Part shown: piece after piece, positions 37,349 to 53,526 of the stretch
Position numbering within the stretch: position 1 is the stretch's first letter
Layout: the number at the start of each line of letters is the position of its first letter
Assembly (NCBI GenBank): GCA_003551215.1
Contig: PUMD01000133.1
Span: 2,494 to 66,493, forward strand
From: Clostridia bacterium
GTDB lineage: Bacteria > Bacillota > Sulfobacillia > SLMV01
Direction of reading: 5' to 3'
Length of the DNA stretch: 64,000 nucleotides
Position numbers and translations under genes: made by a program
The notes under the pieces: model-generated
Told to the model about the DNA's origin: nothing
Seen by the model: only the letters and a program-made list of their open reading frames with translations
Database searches by the model: none

Positions 37349-37484
37349 GTTGTTTGGTGTAAACGGTTGAGATGTATCGGTCGCCTGTTGGAGTTTGCGG
37401 CCTCTAGCATCGCGCCTTCAGCGACTCCGTATTGTCTTGTCGGCTATGATCTGAAGTTTCGATTTGGAAAGGGGTGCAAAGGTA

Positions 37485-38075
37485 GTGGACAAACAAGGCT
37501 TCGGAGGCCCCAGTGAAGATGGCGAAAGAACCGCTTGGTACGAGCGGCAGATCGACTGGGATGCCGTCGGGGATCGCCAGGAAAGTGCTGATTACGAAGA
37601 GGATATAGACTGGGATGCCGTCGAGGAGAAGGTGGACGAGATAATCAATGAATACGACGGAGATTCCGGCGCCCTGATCGAAGTGCTGCACGAAGTTCAG
37701 GAGCTGGTCGGGTATCTGCCGCAAAGGGTGCAGGTGCGGGTGGCTGACCGTCTCGGTCTATCGGTGAGTGAAGTCTACAGTGTGGTCACCTTTTACTCAC
37801 TGTTTTCTCTGAAACCCAAGGGCGAAAACCACATAACGGTATGCAAGGGTACCGCCTGTTACGTTCGCGGTGCAGCCCAGTTAATTGAAGAACTGGAAAA
37901 TCAACTGGGTATCTCTGTGGGCGATACCACAAGCGATGGAAAGTTTTCCCTGGAAGTGGTGAGGTGTCTGGGGGCGTGCGGGCTTGGTCCGGTAGCGATG
38001 GTTAACAACGAGGATGTTTTCGCGCGAATAACCGTCGATCAGGTTTCCGATATGCTGCAGCAGTACGAGGACTAG
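37485..38075 (+). CDS. hydC: NuoE-like [2Fe-2S] subunit of a multimeric [FeFe] hydrogenase (HydC/HndA-like), with an acidic N-terminal extension
   Basis: Thioredoxin-like 2Fe-2S motifs CKGTACYVRG...CLGACGLGP. N-terminus carries a duplicated IDWDAV segment. Start uncertain (GTG 37485 or TTG 37464). Confidence 0.7.
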   Translation: MDKQGFGGPSEDGERTAWYERQIDWDAVGDRQESADYEEDIDWDAVEEKVDEIINEYDGDSGALIEVLHEVQELVGYLPQRVQVRVADRLGLSVSEVYSVVTFYSLFSLKPKGENHITVCKGTACYVRGAAQLIEELENQLGISVGDTTSDGKFSLEVVRCLGACGLGPVAMVNNEDVFARITVDQVSDMLQQYED

Positions 38076-38085
38076 GCGGGCAATT

Positions 38086-38736
38086 ATGGAAGAGATATCG
38101 CTTCATGTGCTGGACATAGCAGAAAACTCCATAAATTCGGGAGCCACTGAACTGGCCATCACTATAGAGGAGCTGCCAGGTGACGGTCTGCTGTCGGTGA
38201 GTATCGCCGATGACGGGGGCGGTATCGCGTCCGATATGCTTCCAAAAGTGGCGGACCCTTTTACTACCAGTAGGACTACGCGAAAAGTCGGCCTGGGGCT
38301 GGCCTTTTTGCAGGAAGCCTGCTGTTCTGCTGGTGGCAACCTTCAGGTCCGTTCCGATTGCCGGGGTACCGTGGTTGCTGCTACCTTTCAGTACGGACAT
38401 ATTGACCGTCCTCCGCTCGGGGATATGGCCTCCACATTGGTGGTACTGGTGGCAACAAAGCCGGGCTTGCGGGTTTCGTATCGGCACGACGTGGGGGACA
38501 GAACGTTCGAGTTCGATACCAAGCAGCTGGACGAGTGGTTTGGCGACCTGGGCGAAAAACAGCAGCGCAGTCCGGTCGTGCTCCAGTGGCTGAGGCGGTA
38601 TCTTGAGGATAACTTGGAATCGCTGCGCGAGGGAGTACAGACGGATGTTCATAATCAAGGACACGCAGGCGACCAAGACCAAAGCCTGATCCGTCGGTCG
38701 CCGGCGGGGAGCATTGATCAACAACAGACTGACTGA
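38086..38736 (+). CDS. Histidine-kinase-like ATPase domain protein (HATPase_c only) embedded in the hydrogenase operon
   Basis: N box HVLDIAENSINSG. G boxes DDGGGI and GLGLAF. No HisKA/phospho-acceptor domain. Confidence 0.6.
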   Translation: MEEISLHVLDIAENSINSGATELAITIEELPGDGLLSVSIADDGGGIASDMLPKVADPFTTSRTTRKVGLGLAFLQEACCSAGGNLQVRSDCRGTVVAATFQYGHIDRPPLGDMASTLVVLVATKPGLRVSYRHDVGDRTFEFDTKQLDEWFGDLGEKQQRSPVVLQWLRRYLEDNLESLREGVQTDVHNQGHAGDQDQSLIRRSPAGSIDQQQTD

Positions 38737-38754: not shown

Positions 38755-41700
38755 ATGAGCAAACAGCGCGCTCATGTTTTGGTGTGTGCGGGAGCAGGCT
38801 GCATATCTTCCGGTTGCCGGGAGACGGCGGCTGAACTCAGCAACGCACTCAGAGAACACGGCCTGGAAGATGAGATTCGCGTGGTGGAGACCGGGTGCAT
38901 GGGGCCATGCGATCTGGGGCCTGTGGTGGTAGTTTATCCCGAAGGCGTGCTTTATCAGCAGGTTAAGCCGGAAGATGCTCAACTGATTGCCGAAGAACAT
39001 CTGCTCAAGGGACGGGTAGTCGAAGAGTTAACCTATCGATTGCCCGGCGTCGGGGAATTCATCCCGAGCCAGGAAGAGATGCCGTTTTTTGGTCACCAAA
39101 ACCGGATTGCCCTGCGCAACGCGGGCTTGATTGATCCGGATTCCATAGAAGAGTACATAGCCCGCGATGGTTACGCCGGCTTGGCCAAAGTGCTTTCGTC
39201 CATGCAGCCAGGAGAGGTAATCGACGCTATAAAAGAATCTGGCCTGCGGGGGCGCGGGGGTGCTGGTTTTCCCACCGGCCTCAAGTGGCAGTTTACCAAA
39301 GATGCTGAAGGGGATACCAAATACGTAGTGTGCAACGCCGATGAGGGAGACCCAGGAGCGTTCATGGACCGCAGTATTCTGGAGGGTGATCCCCACAGCA
39401 TCTTGGAAGCGATGGCAATTGCCGGGTACGCGGTCGGTGCCGGTCAGGGTTACGTTTATGTGCGTGCGGAATACCCGCTGGCTGTCGAGCGTCTCCGGCG
39501 GGCAATAGCCAAAGCTCGAGAATACGGACTGCTCGGTGAAAACATCTTCAGCGCGGATTTCTGCTTTGACATCGACATACGAGTAGGCGCCGGGGCGTTC
39601 GTGTGTGGAGAGGAAACTGCACTTTTGGCCTCTATAGAGGGTCGGACCGGACAGCCCAGACCCCGTCCGCCGTTTCCGGCGAATGAAGGCCTGTGGGGCA
39701 AACCTACGCTCCTTAACAACGTGGAGACCTTTGCCAACGTGGCTCCCATAATTCTCAACGGTGCAGACTGGTTCGCCGGAATAGGTACTGAGGACAGCGC
39801 TGGAACCAAGGTGTTTGCCCTTGCCGGTGATGTTATCAATACCGGTCTTGTTGAGGTTCCCATGGGCACTCCGCTGAGCGATATTGTCTTTGACATAGGC
39901 GGGGGAGTACCAGATGGAAGGAAATTCAAAGCTGCTCAGACCGGCGGCCCTTCGGGAGGATGTATCCCCGCGGAATATCTGAATACTCCGGTTGATTACG
40001 AGTCGCTGACAGAACTGGGCACCATTATGGGGTCAGGCGGCCTGATAATTGTTGATGAGGACACCTGTATGCCCGACTTCGCCAAGTTCTTCTTGGAATT
40101 TGTTCAGGATGAGTCTTGCGGTAAGTGTCATCCGTGTCGTATAGGTACCAAGCGCATGCTGGAAATACTTGAGCGCATAACTGCCGGTGAAGGAGAAGAA
40201 GGGGATATCGATCGCCTGGTTGAGCTGGGGGAGCAGATAAAAGAGCTGGCTCTCTGCGGGCTAGGTCAGTCTGCCCCCAATCCGGTGCTGACCACCATCG
40301 AGTACTTCCGTGAAGAGTACGAGGCACACGTAAGGGACAAGGAATGTCCCGCCTCGGTGTGCGCCTCTCTGTTTACTTCTCCCTGTCAGAACGCCTGCCC
40401 GGCAGATGTGGACGTCCCACTTTACATCGACCTGGTGCGGCAGGGTCGTTTCGAAGAAGCCTACCGTGTGATCAAGACTGAGATGCCGCTGCCTGGAGTC
40501 TGCGGATACGTTTGCAACCATCCCTGCGAGGGTAAGTGTCAGCGGGTGCAGATCGATGAATCGATTGCCATCAGATCCCTGAAGAGATTTGCCACCGATG
40601 CCGTACTGCAGGACAGCGGTGAGCTGCCCGCCCTCGAACGTCTGGCAGAGCGGGAAGGGAAAGTGGCTGTTGTGGGTTCCGGTCCAGCCGGGCTCTCTGC
40701 GGCTCACTTTTTGGCGCGAGTCGGATACTCGGTCACCGTTTTCGAAGCCATGCCGGTATTGGGCGGTACTCTGGCTGCGGGAATCCCTGAGTATCGCTTG
40801 CCAGAAGATGTTCTGGAAGCGGAGATTGAAACGGTGAGCAAGCTGGGAGTCGAGTTCAGAACCGGCGTCTGTGTGGGTAGCGACATTACGCTTGATGAGC
40901 TCAAACAACAGGGTTATGAGGCCATATTCCTGGGAGTTGGTGCTCACAAGAGCCGACGGCTGGGTATACCCGGCGAGGATCTCGACGGCGTGACCCACAG
41001 CATCGAGTTTCTGCGTGACGTAAACGTAGGTCAGCAGACCGACCTCAGTGGTGCTTCCGTGGCGGTAATCGGCGGTGGTAATGCAGCAGTCGATGCAGCC
41101 CGTACGGCTGGTCGTTTGGGGGCCCGAGATGTGAAAATCGTCTACCGGCGCCGAGAAGAAGATATGCCGGCGCTGGATGAGGAAATAGAAGATGCCCTGG
41201 CCGAAGGCATAGAGCTGATAACTCTGGCTAACCCGACGAAGGTGATAGGCCGTGACGGTAGAGTAAGAACCCTCAAATGCCAGCAAATGCAGCTGGGCGA
41301 ATACGATCAGAGCGCCCGGCCCCGACCGATTCCTGCAGAAGGCTCCACCTTCGACCTGGACGTGGATGTGGTGATCGTGGCCATCAGCCAGCAGCCAGAA
41401 GGTGAGTTCACTCTGGAGGGTAAACAGGTGGAGACCACCGATTGGGATACTTTCCCGGTGGATGAAGACACTCTGGCCACCAACGTTCGGGGAGTATTCG
41501 CAGGCGGTGACTGCGTAACCGGCCCCGATACTGTGATCGAAGCCGTTGCAGCTGGTAAGAGGGCGGCCGCGGCCATTGACGTATATCTCGGAGGCGACGG
41601 ACAGATCGTACGCAAGCCTGCCATGGATCGAGTGATCGGTCACGAACTGCTGGAAACCAAGACCGAGCGCGTGGCCATGCCGAAAGTTGCCGCTGACGGG

Positions 41701-41823
41701 CGAAAGGGATTCTCGGTTGTCGAGTTAGGGTATTCCCCAGAGCAAGCAGTGGCGGAGGCCAGAAGATGCCTCAGGTGCGATGTTGAAGACGTGTCTCAGT
41801 CGTCGGGCGAGGCTGCGAATTAA
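38755..41823 (+). CDS. hydB: NuoF-like flavoprotein subunit (HydB/HndC-like) fused to a GltD/NfnB-like NAD(P)H oxidoreductase domain
   Basis: N-terminal thioredoxin-like 2Fe-2S (CAGAGC...CMGPC). NuoF FMN/NADH site ([16 protein letters not shown]; [12 protein letters not shown]). Two ferredoxin-like CxxCxxC clusters. Then a GltD-type module ([19 protein letters not shown]...; [17 protein letters not shown]). 1022 aa single ORF. RBS GGGGGAG. Confidence 0.8.
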
Positions 41824-41842
41824 ATGACCGGAGGTGAGTGCA

Positions 41843-43576
41843 GTGAGTGAAGTTTCTTTAACCATAAACGGACGTGACGTATCTGCGGCTCCCGGGACAA
41901 CGATTCTTGAGGCAGCCAAGCAGATCGATGTTGATATACCAACCCTGTGCTATCTCGAGGGGATCAACGAGATAGGCGCCTGCCGGGTCTGTGTTGTCGA
42001 ATGTGAGGGCAGCCTGCTGGCTGCCTGTACGACCCCGGTGACTGATGGAATGTCCGTGGTCACTAACAGTCCGAAGGTGAGAGCTGCCCGTCGAACCAAT
42101 GTTGAACTCATCCTCTCAGACCACGATGGCGACTGTCTATCCTGCAGCCGCAGCATGAACTGTGAGCTGCAGACCATTGCCCGCAACCTCGGAATTCGGG
42201 AAATCAGATATGAGGGAGAGATGTCCAGCCACCCTCGAGATGAGTCCAGTCCTTCACTGGTCCGGGATCCAGACAAATGCATTCTCTGTCAGCGGTGCTC
42301 AAGTGTCTGCAAGCAGGTTCAGGACGTGGAGGCCATCGATACCGTGGGACGCGGTTTTCAGATGCAGGTCGGTCCGGCCTTTGAGCAGACCATGGACGAG
42401 ATAGCCTGTGTCAATTGCGGTCAATGCATTCTCGTGTGCCCCACTGGTGCAATCACTGAGAAGGATTACAGAGAGGAAGTCTGGGGTGCTCTGAGCGACC
42501 CTGACAAACACGTAGTGGTTCAGACTGCTCCCGCTGTCCGGGTGTCCATTGGTGAAACTTTGGGCATGGAGCCTGGCAGTATTGTAACCGGACAGATGGT
42601 GGCCGGGCTGCGTCTTTTGGGCTTCGACAGGGTGTTTGACACTGATTTCGCAGCTGATCTGACTATAATGGAGGAAGGGAGCGAACTGCTGGCCCGCCTG
42701 AACGAAGGCGGTACGGTCCCGCTGCTGACCTCCTGTAGCCCCGGGTGGATAAAATACGTGGAGCATTTCTATCCGGAATTCACGGATCATCTCTCTACGT
42801 GCAAGTCTCCGCAGCAGATGTTCGGGGCACTGGCCAAGACTTTCTACGCGGAGAAGGCGGGAATCAAACCGGAAGATATTTTTGTGGTATCGGTAATGCC
42901 GTGCACCGCGAAGAAATTTGAGGCCCAGAGGCCGGAAATGGGAGCCAGCGGTTACGCCGACGTGGATGTCGTTCTGACCACCCGCGAGATGGGGCTGATG
43001 TTTTCGGAAGCCGGAGTAGACCTGAGACATCTCGAGGAGGAAGAGTTCGACGATCCTCTCGGGATATCAACTGGTGCCGCGGCTGTTTTCGGCGCTACCG
43101 GTGGCGTGATGGAAGCGGCTCTTCGCACGGTGTACGAGCTGGTTACCGGAGAGGAGCTTGAGGAGCTGGACTTTCACGATGTCCGTGGGTTGCAAGGAGT
43201 CAAGGAAGCCGAAGTTGATCTGCAGGGTACCACGGTTAAAGTGGCGGTGGCCCACGGCCTGAGCAAGGCACGCGGTGTCCTTGACGCCATTAAAGAAGGA
43301 AAAGCCGACTACACGTTTGTGGAAGTGATGTGCTGTCCGGGAGGTTGCATTGGCGGTGGCGGTCAGCCCCTACCCACGGATGACGAGATCAGACAGAAGC
43401 GGATCGACGCCATCTATCAGGTTGATAGAGACATGCCCCTGCGTAAATCGCACGAGAACCCGGCCGTGCAGGCTCTGTACGAGGAATATCTAGGTGAACC
43501 TCTCAGCGACAAGTCACATGAGCTTCTGCACACCGATTATTTGAGGCGCGAGGCGCACGCCGGGTATATCGGCTGA
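41843..43576 (+). CDS. hydA: [FeFe] hydrogenase catalytic subunit HydA (HndD-like), with an L1 motif variant
   Basis: N-terminal plant-type 2Fe-2S and 4Fe-4S ferredoxin domains. H-cluster motifs L1 TSCSPGW (canonical TSCCPxW), L2 MPCTAKKFE, L3 EVMCCPGGCIGGGGQP. GTG start after GGAGGTGA. Confidence 0.85.
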   Translation: MSEVSLTINGRDVSAAPGTTILEAAKQIDVDIPTLCYLEGINEIGACRVCVVECEGSLLAACTTPVTDGMSVVTNSPKVRAARRTNVELILSDHDGDCLSCSRSMNCELQTIARNLGIREIRYEGEMSSHPRDESSPSLVRDPDKCILCQRCSSVCKQVQDVEAIDTVGRGFQMQVGPAFEQTMDEIACVNCGQCILVCPTGAITEKDYREEVWGALSDPDKHVVVQTAPAVRVSIGETLGMEPGSIVTGQMVAGLRLLGFDRVFDTDFAADLTIMEEGSELLARLNEGGTVPLLTSCSPGWIKYVEHFYPEFTDHLSTCKSPQQMFGALAKTFYAEKAGIKPEDIFVVSVMPCTAKKFEAQRPEMGASGYADVDVVLTTREMGLMFSEAGVDLRHLEEEEFDDPLGISTGAAAVFGATGGVMEAALRTVYELVTGEELEELDFHDVRGLQGVKEAEVDLQGTTVKVAVAHGLSKARGVLDAIKEGKADYTFVEVMCCPGGCIGGGGQPLPTDDEIRQKRIDAIYQVDRDMPLRKSHENPAVQALYEEYLGEPLSDKSHELLHTDYLRREAHAGYIG

Positions 43577-43604
43577 TATGGAAGAGCCTGGAGGTGAAGC
43601 TGAC

Positions 43605-43970
43605 ATGAAGATTGAGTCTCTGGATGATCTCCGCAAAGTCCGGGAGCAGGCCAAGGAAGGCATCAGCGTGCGGGAAGGCGGCGATGTCAAGATAGTAGTG
43701 GGCATGGGCACATGCGGCATCGCTGCTGGCGCGCGTGAGGTACTCTCGGCGGTACTGGAGGAGCTGGCGGAGAGAAACATTGTTGGAGTTGATGTTACAC
43801 AGACCGGTTGTGCTGGCTTGTGTGAACATGAACCCCTCCTTGAAGTCATCACCGAGGACCAGCCGCGCGTAGTGTACGGAAAGGTGACACCAGATCGGGC
43901 CAGGAAAATAGTGGTACAGCACCTGATCAATAGGCAGATAGTAGGTGAATGGGTACTCAAGAAGGATTGA
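43605..43970 (+). CDS. Stand-alone thioredoxin-like [2Fe-2S] ferredoxin (14-kDa HndB/HydD-like)
   Basis: GMGTCGIAAGAREV...TGCAGLCEHEPLLEV motifs. ATG 7 nt after GGAGGTGA. Confidence 0.65.
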   Translation: MKIESLDDLRKVREQAKEGISVREGGDVKIVVGMGTCGIAAGAREVLSAVLEELAERNIVGVDVTQTGCAGLCEHEPLLEVITEDQPRVVYGKVTPDRARKIVVQHLINRQIVGEWVLKKD

Positions 43971-44006: not shown

Positions 44007-44600
44007 GTGTCGGGCGGCGTAGCGATATTCTCGCTCCGGCACGACGATAGCCCTCCGATATCGCCCATTGTATATGCGGGGCTGGACCTTTTGTCCCGGG
44101 TGGTTGTCGGGCAATTCGATACGGAAGAAGGTGTCCTCTTGCAGCTGGAATATGAAGTAAAGGGGATGGATTTCCGGAATGCAGGCAAGGCTTCAACTAG
44201 AGTCCGGAAGAGGCTGCAGCAGCTGGGCCTCGACTCGACAACCCTCAGAAGCGTTGCGGTTATCTGTTATGAGGCGGAGATGAACATCGTAATACACGCC
44301 TATGAAGGACGCCTTATAGTGGATATAGATACGACCATGATCGAGATAACAGCCCGGGACCGGGGACCAGGGATTGAGGACATAGAACGTGCCATGCAGG
44401 ACGGGTTCTCTACGGCGCCCGAGCACGTGCGCGAAATGGGTTTCGGTGCGGGTATGGTCCTCACAAACATCAAGAGGCTGGCTAATTCCCTGCAGTTGGA
44501 ATCCACTGAGGGTGAGGGTACATGTTTGAAAGCGGTAGTCTACTACGGCTACCCACAGAAAGGTGGTGTTCAGTCGTGCCAGGGAAGTTTCACTCCGTGA
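44007..44600 (+). CDS. RsbW/SpoIIAB-type serine-protein kinase (anti-sigma-regulatory-factor-like HATPase)
   Basis: HATPase_c_2-like boxes (EAEMNIVIHA; ARDRGPGI; GFGAGM). GTG start after GAGGGA. Confidence 0.55.
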   Translation: MSGGVAIFSLRHDDSPPISPIVYAGLDLLSRVVVGQFDTEEGVLLQLEYEVKGMDFRNAGKASTRVRKRLQQLGLDSTTLRSVAVICYEAEMNIVIHAYEGRLIVDIDTTMIEITARDRGPGIEDIERAMQDGFSTAPEHVREMGFGAGMVLTNIKRLANSLQLESTEGEGTCLKAVVYYGYPQKGGVQSCQGSFTP

Positions 44601-46258
44601 AGCTGATAGAAGACGAGTGTGAGGGCTGTACCAACTGTATTCAAAATTGTCCTACCGAGGCCATTCGGGTACGGGACGGCAAAGCACAGATATTTGAGGA
44701 ACGTTGCATCGACTGCGGCGAATGCATAAGGCATTGCCCGAATCAGGTCAAGACGGCGGTTACGGATGATCTGAAGGCGCTCGGACGCTTTCAGTATAAC
44801 GTCGCTATACCAGCTCCCGCTTTTTTTGGGCAATTTGATCAGGGAGTAACGGCGGATGACATCCTCGCGGGTCTGCTTAACGTGGGCTTTGACGATGTGT
44901 TTGAGGTGGCAGTTGGTGCTGAAGCGGTAACCCTGGCGATTCGCCGATACATTGAAGGAGCCGCCTGCCGTTCACCGCTTATATCTTCGGCATGTCCGGC
45001 TATTGTACGCCTCATCCAGATCCGGTTCCCTGATCTGCTGGATCAGATAATACCCATTCACACTCCGATGGACATGGCTGCCAGACTGGCCAAAAGGAAA
45101 GTGGCCGATGAGCGAGATCTAGCCCTTGAGGATATAGGAGTGTTTTTTGTCAGTCCGTGCCCGGCGAAGGTCACCGCTGTCAAGGAACCGCTGGGAACCA
45201 GCGAGACAGATGTGGACGGGGCAATAGGTGTCGGCGAAATTTACGGCCAGGTGCGTTCCAAGACCGGGCGCGGCGAAGAGAAAAACCTGAGCAGAGCATC
45301 CGGTTTGGGGGCTCAATGGGGGTTTTCCGGTGGTGAAAATCAGGCCATCAACTCAGGAGTCCTTCTGGCGGTAGATGGGATTCAGAGTGCCATTTCAGTC
45401 CTGGACGGCGTGGAAAAAGGCGAGCTGCAGTCAGTAGATTACATTGAGTGTCAGGCCTGCATCGGTGGCTGCGTGGGTGGGGCTTTGATGGTTCAGAACC
45501 CGTTTTTGGCGCGCTCGCGGGTGGAGCGCATGGTGGAACAGATGGATCCGGGCAAAAGATACGAGCCTAGTGTGGACATGGCAGAAGCTACCCAGCTGTT
45601 TGACCGCGGGGAATTCGATCTTACCGAACCCATCCTCGCTCGCCCAGCCATGCGCCTGGATGAGGATGTCAACGTAGCTATGGACAAAATGGCCCGGTTG
45701 GATGAATTGAGCGAGGAACTGCCTGGTTACGATTGCGGTTCCTGTGGAGCTCCTACCTGTCGTGCCCTGGCTGAAGATATCGTTCAGGGGTTGTCAGTCC
45801 GAACCGACTGCATTTTTGAACTGCGAGAAGAGGTCTCTACCCTGGCTGAACAGATAAGCACAATTGTCCAGAGGCGCATGCCGATGATGAGCACCGAGGA
45901 GGAGCGGAAAGTGTTTGATGAGCTCACTCTCAGCCATGTTGCAGACGAGCTGGAGCTCTGGGCAGTGGCATTTGAAGATGTCCTGGACTCCCGTGTGATC
46001 CGAGGAGCTTACTGCTCAGACCTTCTCAGCGATGTAATGGCTAACGCTGGGGAGGGGAGCCTGTGGATTACCATTCAGACCCACCAGAATATTGTGGCGG
46101 TGGCCCTCATGGTTTCGCTTGGAGCCATAGTGGTCTGCGGAGGACGCGAACCCAGCCCGGGAACTGTGGTGAGGGCTGAAGAGGAGAACATCCCACTGCT
46201 GATTGCCGAGGATGATTCGTACACAGTGGCGGCCAAACTGCACAGCTTGACAATGTAG
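44576..46258 (+). CDS. hydS: Putative sensory [FeFe]-hydrogenase-like protein (HydS/HfsB-like) with a C-terminal Fe-S (CGxCGxxxC) and DRTGG-like domain
   Basis: Two 4Fe-4S ferredoxin motifs. H-cluster-like L1 SSACPAIV (proton-relay Cys replaced by Ala), L2 SPCPAKV, L3 ECQACIGGCVGG. C-terminal CGSCGAPTC and ...VCGGREP. Start uncertain (GTG 44576/44597 or ATG 44522). Confidence 0.65.
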   Translation: MPGKFHSVKLIEDECEGCTNCIQNCPTEAIRVRDGKAQIFEERCIDCGECIRHCPNQVKTAVTDDLKALGRFQYNVAIPAPAFFGQFDQGVTADDILAGLLNVGFDDVFEVAVGAEAVTLAIRRYIEGAACRSPLISSACPAIVRLIQIRFPDLLDQIIPIHTPMDMAARLAKRKVADERDLALEDIGVFFVSPCPAKVTAVKEPLGTSETDVDGAIGVGEIYGQVRSKTGRGEEKNLSRASGLGAQWGFSGGENQAINSGVLLAVDGIQSAISVLDGVEKGELQSVDYIECQACIGGCVGGALMVQNPFLARSRVERMVEQMDPGKRYEPSVDMAEATQLFDRGEFDLTEPILARPAMRLDEDVNVAMDKMARLDELSEELPGYDCGSCGAPTCRALAEDIVQGLSVRTDCIFELREEVSTLAEQISTIVQRRMPMMSTEEERKVFDELTLSHVADELELWAVAFEDVLDSRVIRGAYCSDLLSDVMANAGEGSLWITIQTHQNIVAVALMVSLGAIVVCGGREPSPGTVVRAEEENIPLLIAEDDSYTVAAKLHSLTM

Positions 46259-46282
46259 GGGTCGATAATCTTGCGGTCCTGG

Positions 46283-47017
46283 ATGGTGGATCTGCACATC
46301 CATACCGCCCTATCGCCGTGTGCCAGTGATGATATGACACCGGACAACATTGTGGCTGCTTCTCGAGAACGCAATCTCGACGTCATAGGAATAGCTGATC
46401 ATAATTCAGCGGCGAATGTGCGGGCGGTGGTGGCGGCTGCCGACAGCTTTGACCTGGTCGTGCTGCCTTGCTTGGAAGTTCAGACTTCCGAAGAGGTACA
46501 TGTGCTGTGCGTCTTCGATGATCTGGAGAGCGTTGCGGCATGGCAAGAGCATGTCTACCGGCACCTGCCAGATCGGGCCAATGATGAGGAGATTTTCGGG
46601 CGCCAGCATCTGTACGACGAATCGGGTATACTGTCGGGCAGCGAAAACCAGCTGCTATTGGTGAGCGCGGATTTGACCCTGGAATCAGTTTTTGAGGTGG
46701 TTTCGGTGCTGGGAGGGGTGTGTATTCCGGCCCATGTTGACCGTCGCAGCTTCGGACTTCTGGGAGTGTTGGGATTCGTCCCGGAGTCGTTGGACATATC
46801 AGCAGTCGAGGTGTCGCCCAATTTTCCGGGTGATGATGGTTTGAGCATACCGGACTCGGCCGCTACCGTACGTTTTTCTGATGCCCACACTCTGTCAGAT
46901 CTGGGGAACCAGTTTACAACTATGTGGATGGAAGCCCCGACTGTTGAGTGCCTGATGCAGGCCTTCAGGGGAGATGGAGGGAGAAGGGTCAAACCGCGGT
47001 TCGCCAGGGGGGATTAG
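46283..47017 (+). CDS. PHP-domain phosphoesterase
   Basis: HIHTALSP...ADHNS...PAHVDR His/Asp motifs of the polymerase and histidinol-phosphatase fold. Confidence 0.6.
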   Translation: MVDLHIHTALSPCASDDMTPDNIVAASRERNLDVIGIADHNSAANVRAVVAAADSFDLVVLPCLEVQTSEEVHVLCVFDDLESVAAWQEHVYRHLPDRANDEEIFGRQHLYDESGILSGSENQLLLVSADLTLESVFEVVSVLGGVCIPAHVDRRSFGLLGVLGFVPESLDISAVEVSPNFPGDDGLSIPDSAATVRFSDAHTLSDLGNQFTTMWMEAPTVECLMQAFRGDGGRRVKPRFARGD

Positions 47018-47043
47018 CAGCCCTACAGAAAGGAGGAGGTGAC

Positions 47044-49152
47044 GTGGCACAGCAGGTAGTTTACACGGTCTTGGATCAATGCCGTCGCTGTTATCACTGC
47101 GTGCGTGAATGCCCGGTGAAAGCGATAAAGGTGGAAGAAGGTCAGGCCTGGGTGATTGAGGAGCTGTGCATCTCATGCGGAACTTGTGTTAGAAACTGTC
47201 AGCTGCGGGCCAAGACTTACCTCAATGTGGTTCCAGAGTGTGAAAAAGAGCTGGGAGCCAGCCGTCACTCCGTGGCCATGCTTGCACCCTCCTTTGTTGC
47301 CTCATTTACCGAAGTGCAGCCCGGTCAGGTGGTAGCAGCCCTCAAGCGCCTGGGCTTCGATCAGGTGGTGGAAGTGGCCTATGGAGCCGAGTTGACGGCT
47401 TTGGCGTATGAGCAGTTTATCAATGAAGTCATGAACAACGGTGCGGGAGCAAATCAGAATGGCCACACGCAACGTCCACCGTTCCTCAGCAGCGCCTGTC
47501 CGGCGATAGTCAATCTGGCTCAGATTCACTACCCTCAGCTGCTGGAGCATCTGGTGCCGATTGTCTCTCCCATGGTTGCCCTGGCCCGTTTTCTTCGCTG
47601 GCGCGCCGACAGGAGCGAAGAGCCGCAGCCGTTTGTGGTGTTCGTGGGTCCCTGCGTGGCGAAAAAAAGCGAAGTTGACGACCCTAATCTGCGCGGTGAC
47701 GTCGATCTGGTTTTGACCTTCGCAGAACTCCGTCAGATGTGCGAGGAGAAAGATATTGATATCGAAGCGCTACAGCCGGCCGAATTCGACCCTCCCCATC
47801 CTTCGGTAGCCCGAATTTTTCCTCTTTCCGGGGGACTGTTGCGTTCGACGGGGGAACGTACGGATCTGATCAATCCTGATTTCGAAGTGGTTGAAGGTAA
47901 AAACGACGTGGTTGAGCTCTTTGATTCGTTGACCAATGGTGAGTCGGTAGACACCTCCCTGGTTGATATCCTGCTGTGTGAAGGATGCATTGCCGGTCCG
48001 GTGATAGACAGTGACTTGCCCTATATAAAACGACGCGAACAGGTGGTCAACTACACGCGTAGCACGGTAGGAAGCAGTGAACTGAGGCGTGGTAGTCCAC
48101 CGGAAAGCTGTTTTCCCTTGGAGCACCTTAGAAGGACTTTCGAGCCGCAGGCACAGCATCTTGCGGTCCCATCAGAGGAGGAAATACGTTCAATACTGCA
48201 ACGTGTGGGGAAGTCAGAGCCCGAAGATGAGCTGAACTGCGGGGCTTGTGGTTACGGTACCTGCCGGGATAAGGCGGTAGCTGTCCACCGGGGACTGGCA
48301 GAGGCGGAAATGTGCCTTCCTTATATGCTCGAGAAAATGCAGGAGACAGTAAAGCAGTTAGAAGAATCCTATGAAGAGCTGCATGAAATGTACCATGAGC
48401 TGCAGGAGACGCAGAAAGAGCTGGTGCAGGCGGAAAAGATGTCCTCCTTGGGGCAGATAGCGGCGGGAGTGGCCCATGAGATTAACAATCCGCTCAGCGG
48501 CATCCTCCTGCACGTCGACCAGGTAGAGCGGAACGATGACCAACACGTACAGACCATCAGGAAGGAAGCTGCCCGCTGCAAAGATATAGTTCAAAATCTG
48601 TTGAACTTCGCCAGACAATCAAGACTTCGAAAGCAGCCAGTCGGGTGGAATTCGTACGTGCAACAGGTGGTAGAGCAGTATCGAGGCCAGATGTCAAAGC
48701 AAGTGGAGGTTGAGCTCGACCTGCATGCCAGCGCCGACCGCCAGATACAGTTGGACCCCGAGCAGATGAAGAGGGTGCTGACAAACCTTCTGGACAATGC
48801 TGTGGATGCAGTGGATGAATCGGGCAGAGTGACAGTGGCAACTCACTATAATCAGTACACCAAGGAGGTCTCGGTGGTCGTCCAGGATGATGGTGAGGGC
48901 ATATCGGAAGAGAACCAACAGCGGTTGTTTACCCCATTTTTCACAACCAAAGAGCCAGGTAAGGGAACTGGTCTGGGGCTGCCTATGGCCCATGGCATTG
49001 TGAAGATGCACCGGGGTGATATTGAAATTGACTCTGAGGTGGGAGCGGGCACAGAGGTCAAGGTAACGCTGCCTAGGGACACTGAGGGAGCTGCGGCAAT
49101 CGTCGGCGCAGGTGAACCACGCAAGGAAGGTTCATCCGACGTAATTTCGTAA
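47044..49152 (+). CDS. Sensory [FeFe]-hydrogenase-like domain fused to a histidine kinase (HisKA plus HATPase_c)
   Basis: Two CxxCxxC ferredoxin motifs. L1 SSACPAIV, L2 GPCVAKKSE, L3 CEGCIAGP. Then H box AHEINNPLSG and G boxes (DDGEGI; GTGLGLPMAHGIV). GTG start after GGAGGAGGTGA. Confidence 0.7.
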   Translation: MAQQVVYTVLDQCRRCYHCVRECPVKAIKVEEGQAWVIEELCISCGTCVRNCQLRAKTYLNVVPECEKELGASRHSVAMLAPSFVASFTEVQPGQVVAALKRLGFDQVVEVAYGAELTALAYEQFINEVMNNGAGANQNGHTQRPPFLSSACPAIVNLAQIHYPQLLEHLVPIVSPMVALARFLRWRADRSEEPQPFVVFVGPCVAKKSEVDDPNLRGDVDLVLTFAELRQMCEEKDIDIEALQPAEFDPPHPSVARIFPLSGGLLRSTGERTDLINPDFEVVEGKNDVVELFDSLTNGESVDTSLVDILLCEGCIAGPVIDSDLPYIKRREQVVNYTRSTVGSSELRRGSPPESCFPLEHLRRTFEPQAQHLAVPSEEEIRSILQRVGKSEPEDELNCGACGYGTCRDKAVAVHRGLAEAEMCLPYMLEKMQETVKQLEESYEELHEMYHELQETQKELVQAEKMSSLGQIAAGVAHEINNPLSGILLHVDQVERNDDQHVQTIRKEAARCKDIVQNLLNFARQSRLRKQPVGWNSYVQQVVEQYRGQMSKQVEVELDLHASADRQIQLDPEQMKRVLTNLLDNAVDAVDESGRVTVATHYNQYTKEVSVVVQDDGEGISEENQQRLFTPFFTTKEPGKGTGLGLPMAHGIVKMHRGDIEIDSEVGAGTEVKVTLPRDTEGAAAIVGAGEPRKEGSSDVIS

Positions 49153-49458: not shown

Positions 49459-49737
49459 ATGGATCAAAGGATTGGCGTGGTGGGGATCGTGATAGAAGAC
49501 CGAGAGTGCATCGCACCTGAGGTTAACCGAATACTGAGCCAGTTTGGGGATGTTATCGTCGGCAGAATTGGGGTGCCGCGTCCGGACCATGACTTGGCGG
49601 TGATCGCGCTTATCGTACAGGGCACTGCAGATCAGATGGGAGCTCTTACTGGTCGGTTGGGGAATCTACCTTCGGTTCAAGTGAAGTCCGGAATGACCTC
49701 AAAGAGAGTGAAGACAGACGGGGAGGGATGCAGGTGA
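49459..49737 (+). CDS. Small ACT-like putative iron-only-hydrogenase system regulator (TM1266-like)
   Basis: About 92 aa, MDQRIGVVGIVIEDRE... Typical size and position immediately upstream of hydG. RBS GGGAGG. Confidence 0.5.
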   Translation: MDQRIGVVGIVIEDRECIAPEVNRILSQFGDVIVGRIGVPRPDHDLAVIALIVQGTADQMGALTGRLGNLPSVQVKSGMTSKRVKTDGEGCR

Positions 49738-51137
49738 AGCAGCTGCAGGAGGTGATTTCGGAGGAGAGAATATTCAATGTGCTTTCGGATGCTGCCGGAT
49801 CCAGCCGGCAGGAAGCCGGACGCATCATAGACAAGGGCCGCAACCTACAAGGTCTGAGCCCCAAAGAGGCGGCAGTTCTGCTGACCATCGACGAAGAGGA
49901 TCTGCGGCAGCTATTGCTGCAGGCAGCTCGAGAGGTAAAGGAACAGATTTACGGAAAGCGGCTGGTGATCTTCGCTCCGCTTTATCTGGATAATATCTGC
50001 CATAACAGCTGTCTTTACTGCGGTTTCCGAAAAGAGAACCAGAAAATAGAACGACGGCGGTTGTCGATGGAGGAAATAAAAAAAGAAGTCTCTGCTTTGC
50101 AGAAGGAAGGACACAAGCGGCTGTTGATTCTTACCGGCGAGAAGCGGGATGCGGATCTGGACTATCTGCTGGATGGAATAGCTGCTGCATACCAGGTGCA
50201 GACCAAAAAGGGAGGACAGACTCGCAGGATCAACGTCGAGGTCGCTCCCATGACCGACAAAGAGTTTGAGTCTCTTGCGGAAGCGAATATAGGTACGTAT
50301 ACCTGTTTTCAAGAGACCTACCACCGCCCCACCTATAAGAGAATGCACCCGCGAGGGCGGAAGGCAGATTTCGACTGGCGTCTGACGGTTATGGATCGCG
50401 CTCAGCGTGCTGGTATAGACGATGTGGGTATCGGAGCGCTTTTTGGTCTTTATGATTACCGCTATGAGGTGGTGGCAATGCTCCTGCACGCTCAGTATTT
50501 GAGTGAAACCTACGGAGTCGGACCGCACACTGTATCTGTCCCGCGGTTGCAGCCCGCTGCCGAGGCACCGATACGCAAGTCCCCTTACCCGATTTCCGAT
50601 GAGGATTTCAAGAAATTGGTCGCCGTGCTCCGATTGGCTATCCCTTATACCGGGATAATCCTGAGCACCCGGGAACCGGTTTCCCTGCGTAATCAGCTAT
50701 TTATGCACGGTGTTTCTCAGATCAGCGTCGGCTCCCGGACTGCCCCCGGTGCCTACCAGCAAGACGAGCAGGGCTGCGGCAAGCGAGCGCAGTTTACTCT
50801 GCACGATAGTCGTCCTATGTCCGAAGTGGTGGCTGAAGTCGCCAAGGCCAACTATATTCCCAGTTTTTGCACTGCCTGCTACAGAGAAGGGAGAACCGGT
50901 GAGGCTTTCATGGATCTGGCCATACCGGGCAAGATTAGCAACTACTGCAAGCCGAATGCCATGTTGACCTTCAAGGAATATCTCACGAACTATGCCGATG
51001 AAGTGACCACAAAGGCAGGAGAGGCCTGTCTCAACCACCATCTGCGGGAAATCAAGAGCGGAGATAAACAGCTAGCCCAATGGATTGAGCGGGCCTTCGA
51101 CCGCATGCAACGGGGGGAACGCGACATTTACCTGTAG
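49728..51137 (+). CDS. hydG: [FeFe] hydrogenase maturase HydG (radical SAM tyrosine lyase)
   Basis: Radical-SAM CHNSCLYCGF. C-terminal auxiliary cluster motif C-x2-C-x22-C (FCTACYREG...ISNYC). 469 aa. Confidence 0.85.
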   Translation: MQVKQLQEVISEERIFNVLSDAAGSSRQEAGRIIDKGRNLQGLSPKEAAVLLTIDEEDLRQLLLQAAREVKEQIYGKRLVIFAPLYLDNICHNSCLYCGFRKENQKIERRRLSMEEIKKEVSALQKEGHKRLLILTGEKRDADLDYLLDGIAAAYQVQTKKGGQTRRINVEVAPMTDKEFESLAEANIGTYTCFQETYHRPTYKRMHPRGRKADFDWRLTVMDRAQRAGIDDVGIGALFGLYDYRYEVVAMLLHAQYLSETYGVGPHTVSVPRLQPAAEAPIRKSPYPISDEDFKKLVAVLRLAIPYTGIILSTREPVSLRNQLFMHGVSQISVGSRTAPGAYQQDEQGCGKRAQFTLHDSRPMSEVVAEVAKANYIPSFCTACYREGRTGEAFMDLAIPGKISNYCKPNAMLTFKEYLTNYADEVTTKAGEACLNHHLREIKSGDKQLAQWIERAFDRMQRGERDIYL

Positions 51138-51140
51138 GAG

Positions 51141-52445
51141 GTGATCGCCATTCAGAAAACACCGAGAGCAACTCGTCCACATATAGCAGTTTTCGGCAGG
51201 CGCAATGTTGGTAAATCCACCTTGGTCAACGCGCTGGCAAACCAAAACGTAGCAGTGGTTTCGTCGGTACCGGGTACCACAACTGATCCGGTTTACAAAT
51301 CAATGGAACTTCACCCGTTCGGACCGGTTGTGCTGATTGATACTGCCGGAATAGATGATGCGGGCGACCTGGGGGAAGTACGGGTGAACCGCACCAGGCG
51401 TGTGCTTCGCCGGACCGATCTGGCTTTATTGGTGGTCGATCCGCGGCAGGGAATCGGCGAGTGGGAAACGGACTTTCTGTCAGAGGTTAACCGCGATAAA
51501 GTTTCTGTGCTGGCAGTCATAAACAAAATTGATCGAGCGGAAAGAAAGGATCTAAGAGGTATCCGGCGAGAAGTCAGAAACGGGCTGGATCTCCCGGTAG
51601 TCCGGGTCAGTGCCGAGCAGCATAGGGGCATTGATGCACTGCGGGATGAGATAGTGGCCCATCTTCCCCGCAGGGCGAAGGCAGATACCATCGCTGCGGA
51701 CCTTGTATCGGAGGGGAATCTGTGCCTGCTGGTCACTCATATCGATGAGGCTGCTCCCCAGGGCCGGCTGATTTTACCTCAGGTGCAGACGCTGCGCGAT
51801 CTGTTGGACCATGGCTGTCCTGCGCTGGTGACGAAAGAAAGCGAACTACCTCTGGCCCTCAGCAGATTATCGTCGCCGCCGGGTCTGGTTATATGTGATT
51901 CGCAGGTGTTTCCCCGGGTACAGGAGTGCTTGCCGGGGGATGTTTCATTGACCAGCTTCTCCATTTTATTTGCGCGACTTAAAGGGGATTTTCAATTCTA
52001 CCTGCGGAGCCTGCAACAGTTGGAGAGACTTGCCCCCCAAACGAGGATCATCGTAGCCGAGGCATGTACGCATAGGGTTACGCACGAGGATATAGGGCGC
52101 GTCAAGATCCCGCGCATGTTGTGCAGCCGATACCCCGATCGAGCATTTATATTTGATTACTGCTCCGGCAGCGATTTTCCCGATGACCTCGATCCCTACG
52201 ATCTAATGTTGCACTGCGGCGGGTGCATGTTGAATCGCACAGAAGTTCTGTCGCGTCTCGGCGAAGCCCAGGAGGCCTCACTTCCAGTAATAAACTATGG
52301 TATGCTCCTCGCCTACCTCAACGGTATCCTTGGACGAGCCCTTCAACCGATACTGGGCAAACAACCTGCTTATCAATATTGTGGCATCGGGGATGATGTG
52401 CGCGTTGGTGACGATGCAAGGCGAGGTGAAGATGATGTCAGTTAG
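51141..52445 (+). CDS. hydF: [FeFe] hydrogenase maturation GTPase HydF
   Basis: GRRNVGKSTL (G1), DTAG (G3), NKID (G4). C-terminal CxH...HCGGC cluster motif. Start codon uncertain (GTG 51141 abuts the GGAGG). Confidence 0.8.
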   Translation: MIAIQKTPRATRPHIAVFGRRNVGKSTLVNALANQNVAVVSSVPGTTTDPVYKSMELHPFGPVVLIDTAGIDDAGDLGEVRVNRTRRVLRRTDLALLVVDPRQGIGEWETDFLSEVNRDKVSVLAVINKIDRAERKDLRGIRREVRNGLDLPVVRVSAEQHRGIDALRDEIVAHLPRRAKADTIAADLVSEGNLCLLVTHIDEAAPQGRLILPQVQTLRDLLDHGCPALVTKESELPLALSRLSSPPGLVICDSQVFPRVQECLPGDVSLTSFSILFARLKGDFQFYLRSLQQLERLAPQTRIIVAEACTHRVTHEDIGRVKIPRMLCSRYPDRAFIFDYCSGSDFPDDLDPYDLMLHCGGCMLNRTEVLSRLGEAQEASLPVINYGMLLAYLNGILGRALQPILGKQPAYQYCGIGDDVRVGDDARRGEDDVS

Positions 52446-53526
52446 TGAGACAGCATACAGTCACGAGTATATCCACAACATCTTAAAACGGGCACACTGC
52501 CAGGGCCCGGAACTATCCGTAGGGGAGATCGAGGCGCTGCTCAGCATAGGTCATCCCGACGGGCTCGAATCTCTCTACGCTATTGCTGATAAGGTTCGGA
52601 AAGATACGGCAGGTGATGGGATTCACCTGCGAGGACTGATAGAGTTTTCCAATTACTGTCGCAGAAATTGCCTGTACTGCGGGCTGCGCAGGGCTAACCG
52701 TCGTCTGACCCGGTATCGGATGGATCAAACAGAGGTTTTGGGAGTTGTGCAGGCCATGGCGGAGCGGGGTATAAAGACCGTGGTATTGCAGTCGGGGGAA
52801 GATCCGCACTTCACACAGGCGCGGATGGTTTCCCTCGTTGAAAAGATAAAATCGCGTTTTGATATAGCCATTACCCTGAGTGTGGGTATACGATCTCAAA
52901 AGGATCTGATCGCTTTCCGGGCGGCGGGTGCTGACCGCTATCTACTGCGCCATGAAACTGCAAACCGCCAGCTATACTCTCAGCTGCACCCAGATTCCCG
53001 ACTCGGCGACCGAGTAGAAATGCTGCATGCGCTCAGCGAATTGGGATATGATATCGGCACTGGACCCATGGTGGGGCTTCCCGGACAGACTTACCGAGAT
53101 CTGGCCTTGGATATTGATCTGGCCCGACGACTCAAAGCCGATATGTTTGGCGTTGGTCCGTTCATCCCTCATCCGGATACTCCCCTGAGTGAGGCACAGG
53201 AGGGTACAGCAGAGGACACTTTCAAGATGATTGCGCTGGCACGTATAGTTTTAAGGGAGGTTCACATACCTGTGACTACCGCCCTGACCACCCTGGATGC
53301 CGAGGCCCGGGAGAAGGGATGGAACAGAGGGGCAAACGTAGTTATGCCGAACGGCACGCCAGCTCCTTATCGCGAGCAGTATGAATTATATAAGGATAAG
53401 AGATGCCTGCAGGATTCGCTGAAGCGATGTGCGGTTTGTCTGCAGATGCGGGTTCAGTCCGTTTCACGCCATATCAGCTCAGGTTATGGTGATTCCCTGC
53501 GCAGTGACAGACAGAGGTCTTCCTGA
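52432..53526 (+). CDS. hydE: [FeFe] hydrogenase maturase HydE (radical SAM)
   Basis: CRRNCLYCGLRRAN radical-SAM motif, about 364 aa. ATGATG start after GGCGAGGTGAAG, overlapping the hydF stop. Confidence 0.8.
   Translation: MMSVSETAYSHEYIHNILKRAHCQGPELSVGEIEALLSIGHPDGLESLYAIADKVRKDTAGDGIHLRGLIEFSNYCRRNCLYCGLRRANRRLTRYRMDQTEVLGVVQAMAERGIKTVVLQSGEDPHFTQARMVSLVEKIKSRFDIAITLSVGIRSQKDLIAFRAAGADRYLLRHETANRQLYSQLHPDSRLGDRVEMLHALSELGYDIGTGPMVGLPGQTYRDLALDIDLARRLKADMFGVGPFIPHPDTPLSEAQEGTAEDTFKMIALARIVLREVHIPVTTALTTLDAEAREKGWNRGANVVMPNGTPAPYREQYELYKDKRCLQDSLKRCAVCLQMRVQSVSRHISSGYGDSLRSDRQRSS

Follow-up and report, generated by a model that had tools for sequence, protein, structure and literature searches.

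A serine at an H-cluster ligand position in the HydA subunit of a group A6 [FeFe]-hydrogenase from a Clostridia bacterium

Can an [FeFe]-hydrogenase in which a cysteine ligand of the H-cluster is replaced by serine be a normal enzyme? The question is raised by a hydrogenase locus in a stretch of 64,000 nucleotides of contig PUMD01000133.1 (Clostridia bacterium, assembly GCA_003551215.1), hereafter the window. In the initial annotation of this stretch, the L1 motif of the catalytic subunit, HydA, was read as TSCSPGW, with serine in place of the second cysteine, at the position of a ligand of the [4Fe-4S] subcluster of the H-cluster ([4Fe-4S]H). Three explanations were considered: a natural Ser-ligated variant, an inactive or repurposed enzyme, and a single-base error. 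The gene and its three motifs are the following; A1 is an alignment of 26 sequences, in which Ser302 is invariant.

41834-43576, forward strand: HydA, catalytic [FeFe]-hydrogenase subunit, 580 amino acids, assigned on Pfam, NCBIfam and 54% identity with HydA1 of Acetobacterium woodii.
42728-42748, forward strand: L1 motif TSCSPGW, T299-S300-C301-S302-P303-G304-W305, encoded by acc tcc tgt agc ccc ggg tgg in the frame of 41834-43576.
42896-42922, forward strand: L2 motif MPCTAKKFE, residues 355-363, with Cys357 as [4Fe-4S]H ligand, from the translation and invariant in A1.
43322-43369, forward strand: L3 motif EVMCCPGGCIGGGGQP, residues 497-512, with Cys501 and Cys505 as H-cluster ligands, from the translation and both invariant in A1.

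The reading of L1 was confirmed by the frame of the gene, in which Cys301 is encoded by TGT (42734-42736) and Ser302 by AGC (42737-42739), and by phmmer and BLASTP alignments of HydA to CpI, Thermoanaerobacter kivui HydA and A. woodii HydA1, which were gap-free for about 50 residues around the motif. Cys301 stands opposite Cys299 of CpI, C298 of T. kivui and C300 of A. woodii, while Ser302 stands opposite Cys300, Cys299 and Ser301, respectively. In CpI, Cys299 is the proton relay and the ligands of the [4Fe-4S] subcluster are Cys300, Cys355, Cys499 and Cys503. A different register of L1, a possibility left for checking by the initial annotation, was ruled out by the absence of gaps near L1 in the alignments to four solved enzymes, which fix Ser302 opposite CpI Cys300. 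The second cysteine of the textbook TSCCPxW motif of group A enzymes, a ligand of [4Fe-4S]H, is thus absent from the window HydA, which carries Ser302 instead and shows the arrangement of A. woodii HydA1, namely TSCSPxW with serine opposite the ligand cysteine.

The other residues of the H-cluster are in place. The proton-relay cysteine, Cys301, is invariant in A1 and present in all the 84 genome homologs described below. The ligand cysteines of L2 (MPCxxK) and L3 (ExMxCxxGCxxGGGQP), Cys357, Cys501 and Cys505, are invariant across the clade, and the L2 motif is identical in 104 of the 120 nearest homologs. The earlier description of both motifs as canonical holds for L2 and for the ligands of L3, but not for L3 in the strict sense, in which an additional cysteine, Cys500, turns the MAC of most HydA proteins into MCC.

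The affiliation of HydA was clear. It scored 920 bits against NCBIfam NF040763, "NADH-dependent [FeFe] hydrogenase, group A6" (cut-off 765), residues 7-572 covering positions 1-571 of the 571 of the profile, and 543.4 bits against TIGR02512 (cut-off 405.95). The domain order according to Pfam was 2Fe-2S, NuoG-type 4Fe-4S, two ferredoxin-type 4Fe-4S, H-domain and small-subunit-like tail (PF13510, PF10588, PF22117/PF00037, PF02906 and PF02256; PF02906 was matched with E 1.8e-99 over the full profile, 1-245). On the basis of its sequence, the gene at 41834-43576 is the catalytic HydA of a multimeric [FeFe]-hydrogenase linked to reduced nicotinamide adenine dinucleotide (phosphate), NAD(P)H, of the HydABC/Bfu type and of NCBIfam group A6, with NADH as the putative partner, judging from the NuoE-like and NuoF-like genes immediately upstream.

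To begin with the single-base error, the true codon would be TGC (Cys), one base apart from AGC, and the serine a miscall. In an independent Logan assembly of SRR490150, one contig encodes the same protein and is identical over the 40-mer that spans the motif. Additionally, serine is the residue to be expected at this position: TSCSPGW was present in 119 of the 120 nearest HydA homologs (65-77% identity). The closest relatives with a name, at 65-69% identity, belong to the Bacillota, among them Moorella/Neomoorella, Desulfotruncus, Desulfallas and Zhaonella. A set of 80 genome loci was retrieved by two peptide patterns independent of L1, CKSPQQMF and [IV]MPCTAKK; three of them were without a motif-bearing gene and the other 77, all from other species, were kept. 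These span Bacillota, Armatimonadota, Deltaproteobacteria, Melainabacteria-like Cyanobacteria, Bacteroidales, Planctomycetota, Verrucomicrobiota, Elusimicrobia, Omnitrophota and others, and contain 84 HydA genes, 80 with serine and four with cysteine. All six serine codons occur among the 80 genes (AGC 20, AGT 10, TCA 19, TCT 13, TCG 10 and TCC 8), a diversity for which we see long-standing selection for serine as the sole possible source. The error was therefore rejected on the independent assembly, the conservation of the motif in homologs and the use of six codons, and its probability is practically negligible.

The distribution of serine was also assessed in an exhaustive HMMER search against the 1.84 billion representatives of clusters formed at 50% identity, with the L1 columns taken from the phmmer alignment. 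Among about 155 diverse representative H-domains, 105 had the pair Cys-Cys, 30 had Cys-Ser and six had a sensory-like Ser-Cys; serine thus occupies approximately 19% of the domains covering the site, in agreement with the approximately 20% of putative [FeFe]-hydrogenases published previously (Kertess et al. 2017, PMC5855289, citing Winkler et al. 2013). In a rough neighbour-joining tree of 187 H-domains, 87 of the 96 Ser sequences were placed within one clade of 98 tips, and about 16 parsimony changes between Ser and Cys were counted, with Cys inferred at the root. A strictly single origin of serine was discarded, as this approximate tree gives mostly one clade with several switches. From the sequences compared, TSCSPGW is the standard L1 state of the clade, conserved under selection; the broad HydA alignment suggested in the initial annotation has shown the motif to be the usual one among relatives.

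Two further observations concern the organization of these genes. Five of the loci (L006, L008, L009, L010 and L012; Deltaproteobacteria/Syntrophus, Armatimonadota and Halanaerobiales) carry two Ser-type HydA genes each, within about 5 kb, so that tandem duplication of hydrogenase operons is a common occurrence in the Ser-type HydA clade. One protein of 4122 amino acids (P0122) has seven H-domain-like stretches, and is either a giant multi-HydA fusion or an artefact of mis-assembly or gene calling.

Serine at the L1 ligand position has already been described in sequences, in a structure and by spectroscopy. The nearest solved structure to the window HydA is A. woodii HydA1 (PDB 7Q4V, 7Q4W and 8A5E; E 2.6e-208, 54% identity over the full length), which reads ITSCSPGWIKF. 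Its Ser301 replaces the cysteine ligand and, in the model, ligates the [4Fe-4S] subcluster; the enzyme is active and the Fourier-transform infrared (FTIR) spectra of its H-cluster are normal (Katsyv et al. 2023, PMC10021017); both complexes described in that study are active bidirectional hydrogenases. Hydrogenases of Melainabacteria with TSCSPGW were noted, without explanation, by Di Rienzi et al. (2013, PMC3787301), which was the sole relevant match of a full-text literature search for "TSCSP". The serine found throughout the clade and the precedent of A. woodii make it very probable that the window HydA is a natural variant with a Ser-ligated H-cluster, normal for its clade and catalytically active. 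Of the explanations considered initially, this is the one supported, with the qualification that such a variant had been described before and is not new.

In such an enzyme, by analogy with Ser301 of A. woodii HydA1, the oxygen of Ser302 would act as the fourth ligand of [4Fe-4S]H instead of a thiolate, and Cys301 would keep the proton-relay role of CpI Cys299. The remaining three ligands would be Cys357, Cys501 and Cys505, the last of which would also bridge to the di-iron site. Normal assembly of the H-cluster would be expected with the adjacent HydE, HydF and HydG maturases, followed by catalysis. We further infer that the oxygen ligand may tune the redox potential or the catalytic bias of [4Fe-4S]H; engineered ligand changes at other positions of Chlamydomonas reinhardtii HydA1 (CrHydA1) are known to shift the catalytic bias.

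Several points weigh against a Ser-ligated, active enzyme. The map of the A. woodii complex has a resolution of only 3.4 Å, so the direct Fe-O(Ser) bond is modelled and not proven. The engineered CrHydA1 variant C115S loses most of its [4Fe-4S], does not insert [2Fe] and has no activity (PMC5855289), and serine is consequently not tolerated in every scaffold. No clearly co-varying residue that could compensate for serine emerged when all the H-domain columns of 29 representatives of the Ser type were compared with those of 105 of the Cys type; in this sample, which was small and uncorrected for phylogeny, the Jensen-Shannon divergence reached at most 0.36, compared with 1.0 at the L1 site itself. 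Tolerance of serine is probably spread over the scaffold, or the sample compared was too small. Finally, HydB of the window is devoid of the canonical C-terminal ferredoxin-like domain, and the complex may therefore not carry out the same physiological reaction as A. woodii HydABC.

The failure of CrHydA1 C115S, with its low [4Fe-4S] occupancy (PMC5855289), is also what favours the second explanation of the initial annotation, according to which loss of the ligand abolishes the H-cluster and HydA remains only as an electron-transfer or regulatory subunit; HydA-like subunits without H-cluster are known in Nfn-Bfu complexes (PMC12018979). However, none of the residues Cys301, Cys357, Cys501 and Cys505 has been lost, and the clade shows no variation at them; HydA also retains the C-terminal small-subunit-like domain, scores above the curated cut-off of group A6 and has the maturase genes next to it:

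49728-51137, forward strand: HydG maturase, NCBIfam TIGR03955, 506 bits, above cut-off.
51141-52445, forward strand: HydF maturase, NCBIfam TIGR03918, 516 bits, above cut-off.
52297-53526, forward strand: open reading frame of the HydE maturase, NCBIfam TIGR03956, 348 bits, above cut-off.

The set of H-cluster maturase genes is thus complete in the window (49728-53526). The HydE reading frame overlaps HydF by about 150 bases, so the real start of HydE is probably located further downstream. Considering also that TSCSPGW goes together with high hydrogenase activity and normal FTIR spectra in the A. woodii enzyme (PMC10021017), an inactive or repurposed HydA is very unlikely.

A third alternative affects only the identity of the fourth ligand: Ser302 would not bind the cluster, and the fourth Fe-S bond would be given by Cys301 or by the extra Cys500. 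A precedent for the former is the neighbouring C114, suggested as a possible ligand in CrHydA1 C115A (Kertess et al., PMC5855289), but a ligating Cys301 would be lost to the conserved proton relay, which is at odds with the full activity of the A. woodii enzyme, where Ser301 was modelled as the ligand. Cys500 (43331-43333, L3 MCCPGGC) directly precedes the ligand Cys501, at a position where most HydA proteins have alanine. It is common to 102 of the 120 nearest homologs and is enriched in Ser-type enzymes, being present in 16 of 97 Ser-type against 2 of 98 comparison H-domains (Fisher p = 4e-4, uncorrected for phylogeny). On the other hand, it is not needed, since most Ser-type enzymes are without it, including the active A. 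woodii HydA1 (MAC), and for the same reason Cys500 was rejected as a general compensator for serine. In CpI the equivalent residue, Ala498, is flanked by Cys499 and by Met497, the latter facing the di-iron site, and presumably points away from the cluster. A non-ligand Ser302 is accordingly considered improbable to a high degree. The chance is similarly slim that Cys500 restores an all-thiolate [4Fe-4S]H, with Ser302 as a second-shell hydrogen-bond donor, or that the pair Ser302/Cys500 tunes the potential of the H-cluster for complexes with a HydB-NfnL fusion such as the one described below; if true, the first of these would constitute a natural ligand swap within the H-cluster. Ligation by Ser302 in an active enzyme is thus the reading retained here.

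The context of the gene is that of a multimeric enzyme. The genes for a NuoE-like HydC and a NuoF-like HydB are located upstream of HydA, and downstream there is a sensory/regulatory cluster, followed by HydG, HydF and HydE. The two partner subunits are the following:

37464-38075, forward strand: HydC, NuoE-like subunit, thioredoxin-like [2Fe-2S], Pfam PF01257, E 1.9e-51.
38755-41823, forward strand: HydB, NuoF-like subunit for flavin mononucleotide (FMN) and NAD(H), with a C-terminal GltD/NfnL-like module, 1022 amino acids, PF01512, PF10589, PF14691 and PF07992.

As in bifurcating HydABC enzymes, HydC and a HydB with FMN and an N-terminal [2Fe-2S] are therefore next to HydA. Two small accessory genes on the forward strand accompany them within the hydrogenase operon: one for a protein of 216 amino acids with a HATPase_c domain only, between HydC and HydB (38086-38736), and another for a thioredoxin-like [2Fe-2S] protein of 130 amino acids, immediately 3' of HydA (43578-43970), with a weak Pfam match (E 1e-4).

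Residues 2-541 of HydB match residues 2-543 of the 599 of A. woodii HydB (E 1e-243). Residues 542-1012, in turn, match NfnA, NfnB and related chains, and form a GltD/NfnL-like module with two [4Fe-4S] clusters (Fer4_20), flavin adenine dinucleotide and an NAD(P)H site (Pyr_redox_2). Bifurcating HydABC enzymes have at the C-terminus of HydB a ferredoxin-like domain with two [4Fe-4S] clusters (B3/B4), the proposed site of ferredoxin reduction; here it is replaced by the GltD/NfnL-like module, and ferredoxin-coupled bifurcation cannot be assumed for the complex. Of the 80 genome loci, 16, distributed over several phyla, have the same fusion immediately 5' of HydA, in addition to three loci that are truncated by the end of a contig. 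The NfnL-like domain of characterised Nfn-Bfu enzymes belongs to subunit A and not to subunit B (PMC12018979), and a literature search on the HydB-GltD fusion retrieved no relevant paper. Judging from this domain composition, the complex may catalyse a physiological reaction other than the classical H2:NAD+/ferredoxin bifurcation, and H2 may be coupled to NAD as well as NADP instead of ferredoxin.

Only three open reading frames of the window contain an H-domain, namely HydA and two of sensory type, both with a weak H-domain match:

44522-46258, forward strand: HydS-like protein with FeS and DRTGG domains (Pfam).
46948-49152, forward strand: HydS-like protein fused to a HisKA/HATPase histidine kinase (Pfam).

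Both paralogs read SSACP at L1, where the relay cysteine is lost and the ligand cysteine is kept. Replacement of the relay cysteine and a C-terminal signalling domain, which characterize HydS of group C, are found in the two paralogs and are both absent from HydA; the statement of the initial annotation that HydA is the only non-sensory HydA of the locus is thus correct. The two HydS-like genes belong to a regulatory cluster on the forward strand, 3' of HydA (44007-49152), which comprises a HATPase_c_2 protein, the HydS-like protein with DRTGG, a PHP-domain protein, encoded between the two HydS-like genes, and the HydS-like kinase. This cluster may resemble the hfs-type hydrogen-sensing clusters of Thermoanaerobacterales.

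With respect to annotation, TSCSPxW in HydA genes is not a sign of a defect, a pseudogene or a sequencing error. Most members of the multimeric NAD(P)H-linked "A6" clade have this motif, as do about one fifth of diverse group A enzymes. A natural serine ligand supports a normal H-cluster while an engineered serine destroys that of the algal enzyme, a contrast to which the window HydA offers no better access than the A. woodii enzyme, which has already been purified.

Compared with the systems known, the window HydA is closest to HydA1 of the bifurcating HydABC(D) of A. woodii, with which it shares the domain architecture, L1 (TSCSPGWIK), L2 and the NuoE-like and NuoF-like neighbours. It differs in L3, which is MCC in the window HydA and MAC in A. 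woodii HydA1. The HydB subunits differ at the C-terminus, ferredoxin-like (B3/B4) in A. woodii and GltD/NfnL-like in the window. T. kivui HydA (PDB 8A6T; E 5e-206) and CpI (e.g., 4XDC and 3C8Y; E 8e-150) share with HydA the fold, the domain order, the relay cysteine and the ligands of L2 and L3, but have the canonical TSCCP and an all-Cys [4Fe-4S]H; CpI is, in addition, monomeric and ferredoxin-dependent. HydS-like proteins of group C, including the two paralogs of the window, share the H-domain and a variation in the Cys-Cys dyad of L1; however, their substitution is the opposite one and they carry signalling domains, whereas HydA keeps the relay cysteine and has no signalling domain. CrHydA1 C115S has the same change from cysteine to serine as the window HydA, at the same ligand position, and is nevertheless inactive, in contrast to the natural Ser-type enzyme of A. 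woodii, which is active.

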